A DNA stretch of 64,000 nucleotides, taken from positions 75,937 to 139,936 of the forward strand of contig DATMMX010000047.1 in NCBI GenBank assembly GCA_035569495.1, read 5' to 3'. Of this stretch, positions 22,543 through 25,596 are shown one piece after another (the first letter of the stretch is position 1; each line of letters starts with the position of its first letter). The translations under genes were made by a program, and so were the position numbers. This DNA comes from Candidatus Angelobacter sp. (GTDB lineage Bacteria; Chloroflexota; Dormibacteria; Aeolococcales; Aeolococcaceae). The notes under the pieces are model-generated. The model did no database searches, was not told the origin of the DNA, and saw only the letters and a program-made list of their open reading frames with translations.

Positions 22543-25500
22543 TCACACGGGCACCGCGCCGGTCCGCGCGATGGCCTCCTTCGACGTTCCCAGGTACGAC
22601 GCGACAACCCGCGGGTCGGCGAGCACGTCCGTGGGTTTGCCCTCGGCCACCGTCTCGCCCAGCTCCATGGCGACCAGCCGGTCGGACACGGTGGAGATCA
22701 ACGTGATGTCGTGCTCGATGACGAGCAGCGCGCAGCCGGTCTCGGCGCGCAGTCGCTGCAGCAGTGGCGCCAGCTCCTGCACCTCGGCCTGGGCGACGCC
22801 GGACGACGGCTCGTCGAGCAGCAGCACCTCGGGTTCGGCCGCCATGGTGCAGGCGATGTCGACGACGCGACGGGTTCCCGTGGACAGCTCGCCGATCGAC
22901 CACTCCGCGTAGCGCTGCAGGCCGAGCAGCTCGACGAGCATGTCGGCGCGGCGGCGCAGGCGGGCCTCCGAGGCGCGCACCGGGGGAAGCCACAGCGCGG
23001 CCAGCGCGGCGCTGCGCACCACGCCGTGGCGCTCCATGGCGACCATGATGGTCTCGCGCACGGTCAGCGCCCCGAAGAGCCGTGCGTCCTGGAAGGAGCG
23101 GGTCAGACCCAGGCGGGCCCGGGCGTCGGGGTCGAGGTCGGTGACCTCCTGGGCGCCGAGCCTGACCGTTCCTGCCACCAGTGGCACGAACCCGGAGAGC
23201 GCGTCGAAGAGCGTGGTCTTGCCGGCGCCGTTGGGGCCGATGATGCCGACGATCTCCGCGGCGCGCACGCTGAGGTCGACGCCGCGCAGCGCCTCGACGC
23301 CGCCGAAGCGGCAGCGCAGGCCATGGGCTTCGAGCACCACCGGTCTGGTGTCGTCGTGGCCGGCGGTGGCTCTGCGGGCGCTGCTGCCGGTGGTGAGCGT
23401 GGTGGCCCGCGCCGCGCCGGCGAGGAACACCGAGCGCATCACGTCGGGCCGTTCCAGCAGCTCGGCGGTGGGGCCGGCGAAGCGGACCTCGCCCTTCTCC
23501 ATGTAGACCGCGCGTTCGGCGATGGTCAGCGCCAGGTTCACCGACTGCTCGACCAGGATGATCGTGGTTCCCTGCGCATGGATGGCGCGCAGGATGGTGA
23601 GCAGCTGCTCGACCACGGAGGGCGCCAGGCCCAGCGACAGCTCGTCGATCATCAGAAGCCTGGGCTTCATCAGGAAGGCCTGGCCCAGTGCCAGCATCTG
23701 CTGCTCGCCGCCGCTCAGCGTTCCGGCGCGCTCCTGCAGGCGGCGGCGCAGCGCGGGGAAGAACTCGTCGAGGACGCGGTGCATCTGGGTGCGGACGAAG
23801 CCGGCGTCGGACGCGGTGGTCCAGGTGGCGGCGTCGAGGTTCTCCCTGACGGTGAGGTTGGGGAAGATGGCGCGGCCGCCGAGCACCATCACCACTCCGG
23901 CGCGCGCGATCGACTGCGTGGGCAGGTGGGTGATGTCGCGGCCGTCGAAGAAGATGGCGCCGTTGCTGGCCTCGCTGAGGCCGCTGATCGCCCGCAGCAG
24001 CGTCGACTTGCCGGCGCCGTTGGTGCCCAGCAGGGCGACGATCTCGCCCTCGGCGACGTCGAAGTCGACGCCGAAGAGCACCTGCACGCCCGAGTAGGTG
24101 ACGTCGACGTCGCGGCAGACCAGGATGGTGCGGCGCCCGTCGCGCTGCCGCCTGGTCTCCTGCTCGGCGATCGCCGCGGCCTGCGCGGCGCGGATGTCGT
24201 GGGCGATCAGCGGCTGGCCGCTCCAGTACATGAGGGCGCCGATGAGGTAGAGGGGCAGCACCGTCACCATGCCCGCGACGGTCCCGTACTGGTTGCCGAT
24301 GAGCAGGATCAGCGGACCGGCGATCAGGGTCGCCGGCAGCCCCCACACCGCGACCATCGACAGGCCGAAGGCGCGCACCCGCGGTGGGACCACCAGGCTG
24401 GGCAGCGTCGACTGCGCGGGACCCATCAACCCGCCGAGCGCCTGCATCAGGATGCTGAGCGGCACGGCGAGGACAACCCACGGTGCCAGCGTCATGCCGA
24501 CCATGACGAATCCGCTGGCCACCATCAGCGAGCCGATCAGCAGCATGTTGCGCGCCGGGTTGCGCGTGGTGAAGCGGTCCACCAGCGGCGCCATGCCGAT
24601 GTTGGCGACCATGCCGGTCAGCATGGCCACCGTGGCCAGCATGCCGAGGGCGCTGACGTCGAAGCGGAAGTCGCGTTGCAGCTTGACGAAGTTGAGGCCG
24701 TAGAGAACGCCGCCACCCAGCGACACCACCGGCAGCGCCAGGTAGATGCGGCGCAGCGTTCGCACGGCCCAGATGGCGCGCAGCGCCTCGCCGAGCGGCG
24801 GCGGCGGCGGGGCGACGCCGTTGTCGGCGAGGCCCGCTGCGATGCGCTCCGACTGCCCGCGCGACGGCTCGCGCAGCGGCAGGTAGGCGAACACGGTGAC
24901 CACCAGGATGGCGCCGCAGACGAGGAATCCGGTGCGCCATCCGATGCTCGCCGCCATCAGGCCGCCGAAGGCCGGGCCGATCAGCTTGCCGAGGTTGCCG
25001 CCGGTGGTCTCCACGGTGTATGCGCGGGCGCGCAGGTGTGGCGGGATGTAGTCGGCCACCACCGAGTAGCGGATGGCGCTGAGCGGTCCGGCCAATCCAC
25101 CGCCGAGGTTCATCATCGACACGCCGAGCACCAGCAGCGGCAGGCCACCGCGTCCCGCCAGCAGGCAGAAGGCGCCCTGGACGACGGCGCCGCCGATCAT
25201 CAGCGGCATGCGCCGCACGCGATCGCCGTAGTAGCCGATCACGGGCGAGGTGAAGGCGGCCAGGACGCCGACGCTGGACAGCAGGGTGACCACCATCGCC
25301 GGGCTGAAGCCGAACTCGCGCTGGCTGCCGATGATCAGGAACGGCACCGCCTGGGTGGCGACGTTCTCGGCGAGGTCGGTGAGGCTGAGCGAGAGCAGCG
25401 CCAGCGTCTGCACGGGCGACAGCTCGCGGAAGATGTTGTAGGCGCGCAGGTACGCGCGCAGCGCGTCGCCGCGGCCACGCTTCTCCTGCACCGGGTCCGC

Positions 25501-25596
25501 AACGATTGCGCTGTCACGCAATGCAGAGGGGCCGCCCGAGGTCGCTCCCTCGTCCTGCTGGCGCTGCGACGGCACCAGGGTGCGCTGCGCCGTCAT
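22543..25596 (-). CDS. Tri-domain fusion: N-terminal MFS-type 12-TM transporter domain + LivF-like ABC ATPase + LivG-like ABC ATPase (1017 aa)
   Basis: ATG (MTAQRTL…) overlaps the stop of the LivHM permease gene (ATGA). MFS motif A occurs twice (GYYGDRVRRMPLMIGG; PLVDRFTTRNPARNMLLIGS). Cassette 1 is LivF-like (GTNGAGKSTLL / LSGGEQQMLALGQAFLMKPRLLMIDELSLGLAP / ILVEQ). Cassette 2 is LivG-like (GPNGAGKTTLFDAL / LSTGTRRVVDIACTMAAEPEVLLLDEPSSGVAQ / LVIEHDI … ASYLG). One uninterrupted frame. Confidence 0.8.
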   Translation of the reverse strand: MTAQRTLVPSQRQQDEGATSGGPSALRDSAIVADPVQEKRGRGDALRAYLRAYNIFRELSPVQTLALLSLSLTDLAENVATQAVPFLIIGSQREFGFSPAMVVTLLSSVGVLAAFTSPVIGYYGDRVRRMPLMIGGAVVQGAFCLLAGRGGLPLLVLGVSMMNLGGGLAGPLSAIRYSVVADYIPPHLRARAYTVETTGGNLGKLIGPAFGGLMAASIGWRTGFLVCGAILVVTVFAYLPLREPSRGQSERIAAGLADNGVAPPPPPLGEALRAIWAVRTLRRIYLALPVVSLGGGVLYGLNFVKLQRDFRFDVSALGMLATVAMLTGMVANIGMAPLVDRFTTRNPARNMLLIGSLMVASGFVMVGMTLAPWVVLAVPLSILMQALGGLMGPAQSTLPSLVVPPRVRAFGLSMVAVWGLPATLIAGPLILLIGNQYGTVAGMVTVLPLYLIGALMYWSGQPLIAHDIRAAQAAAIAEQETRRQRDGRRTILVCRDVDVTYSGVQVLFGVDFDVAEGEIVALLGTNGAGKSTLLRAISGLSEASNGAIFFDGRDITHLPTQSIARAGVVMVLGGRAIFPNLTVRENLDAATWTTASDAGFVRTQMHRVLDEFFPALRRRLQERAGTLSGGEQQMLALGQAFLMKPRLLMIDELSLGLAPSVVEQLLTILRAIHAQGTTIILVEQSVNLALTIAERAVYMEKGEVRFAGPTAELLERPDVMRSVFLAGAARATTLTTGSSARRATAGHDDTRPVVLEAHGLRCRFGGVEALRGVDLSVRAAEIVGIIGPNGAGKTTLFDALSGFVPLVAGTVRLGAQEVTDLDPDARARLGLTRSFQDARLFGALTVRETIMVAMERHGVVRSAALAALWLPPVRASEARLRRRADMLVELLGLQRYAEWSIGELSTGTRRVVDIACTMAAEPEVLLLDEPSSGVAQAEVQELAPLLQRLRAETGCALLVIEHDITLISTVSDRLVAMELGETVAEGKPTDVLADPRVVASYLGTSKEAIARTGAVPV

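Follow-up and report, generated by a model that had tools for sequence, protein, structure and literature searches.

How can a carrier of the major facilitator superfamily (MFS) and two ATP-binding cassette (ABC) ATPases come to share one polypeptide, and what would such a protein do? The question is raised by a gene on a stretch of 64,000 nucleotides of contig DATMMX010000047.1 from Candidatus Angelobacter sp. (hereafter the window), which has a G + C content of about 73%. The gene occupies positions 22543..25596 on the minus strand, is read from 25596 to 22546 (ATG at 25596–25594, TGA at 22545–22543) and encodes 1017 amino acids (aa) plus the stop. From the N- to the C-terminus, the product consists of a tail, an MFS domain similar to Spinster carriers, a linker helix, a LivF-like cassette, a second linker and a LivG-like cassette. 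We interpret the protein as the ATPase subunit of a Liv/HAAT importer that depends on a substrate-binding protein (SBP), to which the MFS domain would add an accessory module tied to the ATPase, and assign this interpretation a probability of about 0.5.

Because of the high G + C content, long stop-free frames occur on both strands of the window. The plus-strand reading of 22543–25596, which is also free of stops, was rejected as a non-coding frame of the kind typical for DNA with 73% G + C; the gene is on the minus strand. In the coding frame, the G + C content of third codon positions (GC3) remains between 0.86 and 1.00 throughout 25520–22730, with no shift around position 24150 in the GC3 frame plot, and the DNA at the MFS/ABC junction is free of homopolymer runs. 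An earlier interpretation of the locus from its letters alone (the sequence-only reading) had claimed a single uninterrupted open reading frame and had named a frameshift at this junction as the point to be checked. The unbroken frame and the domain matches bear out the former and give no sign of the latter. In Pfam, MFS_1 was matched with 119.6 bits (cutoff 33.4) and ABC_tran in two stretches with 193.6 bits, followed by the C-terminal domain BCA_ABC_TP_C. The NCBIfam models for LivF and LivG cover residues 490–727 and 754–1004, respectively, and NCBIfam holds no model specific to the fusion architecture. The UrtE model also scored above its cutoff, a score that sums two cassettes and is not diagnostic.

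The architecture is conserved far beyond the window. A word-indexed search yielded 16 full-length homologues (993–1042 aa, 41–100% identity), all with MFS_1 and ABC_tran, and homologues of the fusion are spread over assemblies from JGI, ENA, NCBI and Logan. With residues 1–493 as query, HMMER detected 313 MFS relatives at E ≤ 1e-10 among 1.84 billion cluster representatives. The architecture was parsed for the best 150 of these 313 by means of the query's own domains. At least 52 of the 150, each standing for a cluster at 50% identity, have the order MFS-LivF-LivG (approximately 1000–1060 aa), about 33 have the form MFS-LivF and the remainder comprise the MFS domain only. The shortened form of P0091 is owed to a contig end; locus L011 encodes a genuine 715-aa MFS-LivF protein followed by a separate ABC cassette gene (LivG). 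A true stand-alone relative, P0106, looks like an ordinary carrier and adjoins a MarR regulator, and a second word-indexed search with the MFS profile returned only stand-alone MFS proteins of 424 aa. Retention of the fusion in 16 homologues down to 41% identity and in these clusters leads us to conclude that the fusion gene is real and old. The sequence-only reading had called the architecture rare or undescribed. The first term does not hold given the number of clusters, while the second stands, since no description was found in the literature searched for MFS-ABC fusions.

All traceable examples originate from metagenomes or metagenome-assembled genomes (MAGs), as do the ten fused representatives that were looked up individually, and no cultured host was found among the traced carriers of the fusion. 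The window's own protein is labelled 'Candidatus Angelobacter sp.'; the other named sources are MAGs of Candidatus Dormibacterota. A scan of the genome collection with the alignment of the close clade retrieved a single locus, L005 (DASRDZ010000078.1, named isolate SMAG_U9993). It belongs to the Candidatus Dormibacterota MAG that also holds L002 (DASRDZ010000044.1, assembly GCA_035652335.1). Two diverged paralogues are thus present in a single MAG, and the taxonomic coverage of the fusion is thin.

The gene directly upstream identifies the membrane partner of the cassettes. It encodes a 749-aa permease (25593..27842, minus strand) in which LivH (51–358) and LivM (386–532) are fused, each matching BPD_transp_2. 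Its stop codon overlaps the start of the fusion gene as ATGA, which confirms what had been noted from the letters. A permease gene of this kind, encoding 716–783 aa with two BPD_transp_2 domains and no ATPase of its own, is part of the same operon in every locus fetched. It adjoins the fusion gene, usually with an overlap, in the window and in loci L001, L004–L009, L011 and L013, and is one gene away, with an SBP gene in between, in L002, L003 and L012. A search of the window's LivHM protein against PDB sequences gave nothing at E ≤ 0.01.

The closest MFS-less relatives of the cassettes, P0017 and P0018, are single chains with the order LivH-LivM-LivF-LivG. Their cassettes are 49–52% identical to those of the fusion, and the permease half of P0017 shares 35% identity with the window's LivHM over 639 aa. 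LivHM and the fusion protein are thus collinear with the single-chain LivHMFG proteins, which assigns the cassettes to LivHM and makes the MFS domain an insert between LivM and LivF. Such an insertion leaves the topology unchanged, because the number of helices is even and the C-terminus of the insert is joined to a cytoplasmic cassette. The collinearity, together with a LivHM that lacks its own ATPase, makes unlikely the earlier suggestion of an ABC exporter with an MFS-like membrane module. A further metagenome representative, P0231 (940 aa), comprises LivH, LivM and MFS in one frame and seemingly ends inside the MFS domain. It may be a five-module single chain or an error that merged genes at the ATGA overlap, and calls for caution because it is a single case beside such an overlap.

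Both cassettes have the features of Liv/HAAT-type ATPases, with Walker A, Q-loop, signature, Walker B and catalytic glutamate all intact. The LivF-like cassette (aa 488–725; 23422..24135, minus strand) contains Walker A GTNGAGKST (524–532), the signature LSGGEQQ (627–633) and Walker B LLMIDE (647–652), with invariant D651 and E652. In the LivG-like cassette with its BCA_ABC_TP_C tail (aa 753–1017; 22546..23340, minus strand; Pfam tail match 982–1005), the corresponding motifs are GPNGAGKTT (787–795), LSTGTRR (904–910) and LLLLDE (924–929). K793, LSTGxRR, D928, E929 and H962 of this cassette, like the motif residues of the cassettes in general, are invariant across the 16 homologues. The sequence-only reading had described two full nucleotide-binding domains (NBDs), each with an H-loop. 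Walker A, signature and Walker B are indeed present in both, whereas the H-loop histidine is found in the second cassette only (IEHD, H962); at this position the first cassette reads VEQS (Gln684). We take a glutamine here to be normal for LivF-type cassettes (compare EQN in LivF of Escherichia coli).

It had also been stated that no SBP is present. However, at 35444..37165 the minus strand encodes a protein of 573 aa in which an N-terminal membrane anchor and a spacer rich in Pro, Thr and Gly precede a divergent Peripla_BP_6 domain (36.4 bits in Pfam, cutoff 31.7). This gene is located 7.6 kb upstream of the LivHM gene and 9.8 kb from the fusion gene, an arrangement shared by the window, L001 and L007. 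Elsewhere homologues are part of the operon: in L002 between the fusion gene and the permease gene (34% identity, 2e-75), in L011 at its head (7e-35), and in L014 immediately upstream of the MFS-less single-chain relative P0018 (2e-22). In L004, a homologue is found 5 kb away (2e-52), and L012 has a 590-aa gene in the same position as in L002, matched by size and place without alignment. Neither an SBP nor a MoxR protein was recognisable in the flanking fragments of L008. Members of this SBP family are approximately 570–600 aa long across the loci, and comparison of the window's SBP with PDB sequences gave chance-level matches only (E 0.35 or worse). Since the large SBP is present with or without the MFS domain, it is a specific partner of this Liv-like subfamily. 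The 573-aa protein is probably the cognate SBP of the transporter, and the core machine, as judged from the encoded proteins, is an ordinary binding-protein-dependent importer.

The importer that we propose would work as follows. The LivF-like and LivG-like cassettes would form an intramolecular head-to-tail ATPase dimer under LivHM and would drive LivHM, not the MFS domain, in response to the SBP. The MFS domain, with both termini in the cytoplasm, would be an evolutionary insert that separates the permease part from the ATPase part. In the membrane it would be placed beside LivHM as an accessory tied to the ATPase; it would have to be immediately adjacent, because a single short conserved helix tethers it to the first cassette. 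In this position it may offer an additional route, either for an amphipathic compound or for a product that is related to what is imported, or it may instead serve as a conformational regulator of the importer.

The tether (aa 460–487, HDIRAAQAAAIAE...; 24136..24219, minus strand) joins the twelfth transmembrane helix (TM12) to the first cassette. AlphaFold2 predicts a helix at 461–480 that leads into the strand at 488. Its consensus is HD[IM]RAAxAAAxAE, with D467, R469 and A477 invariant in the 16 homologues. The linker between the cassettes (aa 726–752; 23341..23421, minus strand) is poorly conserved and disordered, with a predicted local distance difference test (pLDDT) score below 50 at 725–748. 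The ratio of nonsynonymous to synonymous substitution rates (dN/dS) of the tether is 0.17 (against L006) and 0.09, with only the first NBD being lower (0.12 against L006), and that of the inter-cassette linker is 0.85 (against L006) and 2.7; such ratios are weak evidence, being inflated at a GC3 of about 95%, with the contrast between the two linkers still informative. The MFS domain is always joined to the LivF-like cassette, including in L011, where LivG is a separate gene. Conservation of this short helix hints at functional coupling. It is conceivable, although in our view unlikely, that the MFS domain is mechanically coupled to the ATPase cycle through the helix, so that ATP gates or drives the carrier or the carrier gates the importer, perhaps together with the co-conserved envelope proteins MoxR, DUF58 and TgpA.

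The MFS domain itself (aa 61–459; 24220..25416, minus strand) was predicted by AlphaFold2 to have 12 TM helices within residues 61–459 and two short loop helices between TM6 and TM7, in agreement with the 12-TM fold claimed before. The helix count was taken from this model; a crude hydropathy scan found 9 of the 12 helices in the region. Modelled alone, the domain reached a pLDDT of 81.9 and a predicted template modelling (pTM) score of 0.79. The full-length model, based on the alignment of 16 sequences, had a mean pLDDT of 77.7, with the MFS region mostly at 80–90. The duplicated motif A that had been reported is also present, with GYYGDRVRRMP at 121–131 in the TM2-TM3 loop and PLVDRFTTRNPAR at 337–349 in the TM8-TM9 loop of the C-terminal half. 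G121, D125, R126 and R129 are invariant in the 16 homologues, and D340 and R341 of the second copy are conserved to at least 90%. The dN/dS of the MFS domain is 0.33 against the closest DNA homologue, subject to the same inflation.

In a sequence search of the PDB with a profile of eight family members, 6e8j, a Spinster homologue from a bacterium, ranked first (E 1.7e-22) and Spns1 third, and the domain is closest to Spinster carriers in structure comparison as well as in sequence comparison. It also carries the Spinster-type loops DYYPPxxR and REPxRG. In a single-sequence search of the PDB, the matches were weak and DHA-like (VAChT, VMAT, QacA and EmrB, 6e-6 to 1e-3). In TM5, GKLIGPAFGG (203–212) fits GxxxGPxxGG, which we take to be motif C of the DHA1/DHA2 drug:H+ antiporters. 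The TM4 glutamate of Spinster carriers has no aligned counterpart in the window protein, and their TM1 Asp-Arg pair is replaced by Glu77-Asn78; for these reasons the domain is named Spinster-like here and not a Spinster orthologue. Other fused members (P0015 and many representatives) retain 'DELDR', and the acidic residue in TM1 is kept in all aligned members but one.

The tail that precedes the MFS domain (aa 1–60; 25417..25596, minus strand) is predicted to be disordered, with a pLDDT below 50 for residues 1–40. It contains the motif R-x-LVPS-x-R-Q (aa 5–12; nucleotides 25561–25584, minus strand), of which R5, L7, V8, P9, S10 and R12 do not vary within the close clade. The strict form [LIVMF]VP[ST] occurs in 17 of 55 parsed N-termini of the fused group, and looser variants were seen by eye in more. 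Only 2 of 36 'stand-alone' MFS relatives have the motif, both of which appear to be truncated. The motif could be a docking peptide.

Several observations weigh against the proposed importer with an accessory carrier module. The relative placement of the domains is uncertain, given that the full-length model has a pTM of only 0.60. What the analysis shows is the architecture with its conservation, the partner genes, the Spinster-like fold and the conserved tether; assembly into one complex, the direction of import and a coupling between MFS domain and ATPase are what we infer. The dN/dS values are not only inflated but unreliable, because a GC3 of about 95% depresses dS. The neighbouring genes (GH31, GH35/42, alpha-amylase, PhyH and ROK) include no amino-acid genes, which suggests a substrate other than branched-chain amino acids. 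In the MFS domain, the loss of the TM1 Asp-Arg pair affects a site that, with the TM4 glutamate, is implicated in coupling in HnSpns and Spns2. The window's clade has lost the TM4 arginine, which we take to be motif B and which a distant clade has. Invariant MFS residues are located nearly all on the cytoplasmic face, and the domain evolves much faster than the cassettes, with between-clade identities of 25–30% versus roughly 60–70%.

Since the invariant residues are cytoplasmic and the polar TM residues of Spinster carriers are lost, the MFS domain could be a scaffold instead of a carrier. It would then act as a membrane anchor, an assembly hub or a ligand sensor without carrier function, comparable to the TMD0 of ABCC proteins or to 'transceptors' with an MFS-like fold. 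The fast divergence of the domain relative to the cassettes, the loss in the window's clade of polar TM-core residues relevant in Spinster and the existence of the MFS-less P0017 and P0018 are in line with this explanation. Because such relatives exist, P0018 even with the same SBP family, the MFS domain is dispensable for the basic import cycle. However, both copies of motif A, which controls the rocker-switch in MFS carriers, are conserved throughout the family. Furthermore, at least 52 clusters keep the full set of 12 helices, and the acidic TM1 residue is almost never lost. On this evidence, a scaffold without carrier function appears unlikely.

A second explanation is that two independent transporters share one chain, in which case a proton-coupled Spinster-like carrier of a related compound would have been fused only for co-expression and fixed stoichiometry, without a mechanical link to ATP. 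Fusions of functionally related proteins are common, the stand-alone MFS relatives resemble ordinary efflux carriers (e.g. P0106 with its neighbouring MarR gene), and GPxxGG in TM5 (aa 207–212) resembles antiporter motif C. The nature of the tether, which is short, helical and conserved and not floppy, speaks against it, as does the constant attachment of the MFS domain to the LivF-like cassette even where LivG is separate. We regard this possibility as rather doubtful.

Thirdly, the cassettes might act directly on the MFS domain, which would make the protein an ATP-driven or ATP-gated MFS carrier or an ABC exporter whose membrane domain is the MFS, possibilities of the kind raised in the sequence-only reading. 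Compatible with this are the rigid, conserved helix that connects TM12 to the first cassette and the strong conservation of the cytoplasmic face of the MFS domain, and the pair ArsB and ArsA is a known case of a secondary carrier that became an ATP-driven pump. The cassettes are, however, of typical LivF and LivG type, have a dedicated LivHM partner and are collinear with LivHMFG. In addition, we know of no equivalent of a coupling helix in MFS proteins, and a single cassette dimer could hardly dock canonically under both LivHM and the MFS domain. An MFS domain driven directly by the cassettes is thus quite improbable. That an assembly frameshift or a lost stop merged an MFS gene with livF and livG is excluded for practical purposes, because the GC3 frame is continuous and the same fusion, with conserved junction residues, recurs in independent assemblies from four sources and in at least 52 representative clusters, the only caution being that ATGA overlaps allow single-base errors to merge genes, a point to bear in mind for P0231.

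The known systems closest to the proposed importer with its accessory MFS module include LivJ/K-LivHMGF of E. coli and the other HAAT importers (TC 3.A.1.4). Shared features are the LivF and LivG cassettes, the LivF glutamine, the BCA_ABC_TP_C tail, LivH and LivM permeases with BPD_transp_2 and an SBP with Peripla_BP_6. In contrast to E. coli, the permeases are fused here, the cassettes are fused in the order F-G, a 12-TM MFS domain precedes the cassettes, and the SBP, which is anchored in the membrane, has a far greater length (573 aa) and a highly divergent sequence. P0017 and P0018 have the same domain order and, in the case of P0018, the same SBP family (~570 aa) immediately upstream, whereas they lack the MFS domain and are single polypeptides. 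Spinster carriers (human Spns1 and Spns2; HnSpns of Hyphomonas, 6e8j; TC 2.A.1.49), which move lysophospholipids or sphingosine-1-phosphate, differ from the present domain in that the latter is fused to ABC cassettes and has Glu-Asn in place of Asp-Arg in TM1.

The TMD0 of ABCC, SUR and TAP proteins and LplT-Aas likewise have an extra membrane domain that is tethered to a core and is not the translocation domain of this core. TMD0 is, however, a 5-helix bundle unrelated to MFS, and LplT is fused to an acyltransferase/synthetase and not to ABC cassettes. The ArsAB pump also combines a secondary carrier with a cytoplasmic ATPase and is a conceptual precedent only: ArsB does not belong to the MFS, nor ArsA to the ABC cassettes, and the two are separate polypeptides. 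A whole-protein Foldseek search against the PDB matched tandem cassettes only (query-normalised TM-score, TMq, at most 0.24), with no solved structure of the same architecture. To our knowledge, bacterial Spinster-like proteins have no established function.

Each part of the protein is thus of a known kind, and the combination was not found in the literature searched, which gave no description of a Spinster-like MFS domain between the permease and ATPase modules of a Liv-type importer. The transporter-census paper of the Saier laboratory mentions bacterial Spinster homologues alone and not the fusion, and a search for literature on ABC transporters of Dormibacterota gave nothing further on it. 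The MFS and the ABC transporters are usually kept apart as two classes with different mechanisms, and in the conserved family described here an intact MFS fold is placed on one chain with ABC cassettes. The family therefore offers a natural system for asking whether a secondary-carrier fold controls, or is controlled by, an ATPase engine. Should the MFS domain indeed be coupled to the ATPase, the two main classes of transporter would be combined in one natural hybrid. Bacterial Spinster-like proteins also gain a defined genomic and physical context, tied to an uncharacterised MoxR-DUF58-TgpA module. Public databases label such genes 'MFS transporter' or, alternatively, branched-chain amino acid ATPase, and each label misses half of the protein.

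The module just mentioned is encoded downstream of the fusion gene on the same strand. A MoxR-type AAA+ ATPase gene (21488..22516, minus strand) starts 27 nucleotides downstream of the fusion gene with its own ribosome-binding site, GGAGGAG. It is followed in the same direction by genes for a DUF58 protein (20210..21481, minus strand) and a TgpA-type transglutaminase-like membrane protein with TgpA_N and Transglut_core (17943..20213, minus strand; the start is approximate and was set from orthologues of 748–755 aa). All three genes accompany the transporter in the window as well as in L001, L002, L005, L006, L007, L012 and L013, while L004 has TgpA only. Orthologues of MoxR in L001, L002, L006, L007, L012 and L013 gave Pfam matches to AAA_3/bpMoxR.

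Four gene orders were observed: LivHM-fusion-MoxR-DUF58-TgpA, fusion-SBP-LivHM-MoxR-DUF58-TgpA, LivHM-fusion-TgpA and MoxR-DUF58-TgpA-x-LivHM-fusion. By Pfam annotation, L002 has the second of these orders, with an SBP-like gene between the fusion gene and LivHM. In L005, the window-like copy of the same MAG, a LivHM reading frame directly precedes the fusion gene and frames of MoxR, DUF58 and TgpA size follow it, as judged by size and position only. The module was found neither near the MFS-LivF variant L011 nor near the MFS-less relative L014. A linkage that outlasts rearrangement suggests a functional tie of MoxR, DUF58 and TgpA to the transporter; given a small and phylogenetically narrow sample, we treat the association as a lead. 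A passage of one report (PMC8430577) assigns a MoxR-DUF58-transglutaminase trio to the 'PFNA' cluster of Bifidobacterium.

On the other side of the operon, and divergent from the LivHM gene, a 1324-aa protein with GH31, an alpha-amylase-family catalytic domain and a neopullulanase-like C-terminus is encoded at 27975–31949 (plus strand). The same GH31-alpha-amylase fusion is found at this place in L001 and L007. The gene string at 31922–37165 (minus strand) consists of the SBP gene, a GH35/42 beta-galactosidase-like gene, a gene for a protein of approximately 240 aa (32761–33471), which had no Pfam match, and a PhyH dioxygenase gene; it is conserved in L001 and L007 (1–3690). A canonical Liv operon suspected at 31922–35400 (minus strand) was discarded, as the translation gave the GH35/42 protein, the unrecognised protein and PhyH. 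Further PhyH genes are located at 10330–11739 and 40539–41576, and PhyH occurs again in L004 and L012.

Two additional GH31 glycosidases are encoded at 11111–14176 and 37107–39482 (both plus strand). The window also contains a ROK-family regulator or kinase with an N-terminal helix-turn-helix (7464–8705, minus strand) and a 1385-aa open reading frame (1840–5997, plus strand) with a coding-like GC3 of 0.90 and no Pfam match at E ≤ 1e-4. An S15 X-Pro dipeptidyl-peptidase is encoded at 14173–16437 (minus strand), and an S15 peptidase gene is also located downstream of the cluster in L001 and L007.

A second Liv system of the window, which is free of MFS domains, is encoded on the minus strand by genes for an SBP with Peripla_BP_6 (46599–47876), a LivF-like ATPase (45849–46598) and a 938-aa triple fusion of LivH, LivM and LivG (43130–45946). 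The first cassette of the MFS-ABC fusion is 40% identical to this separate LivF-like protein. Liv genes of this genome tend to be fused.

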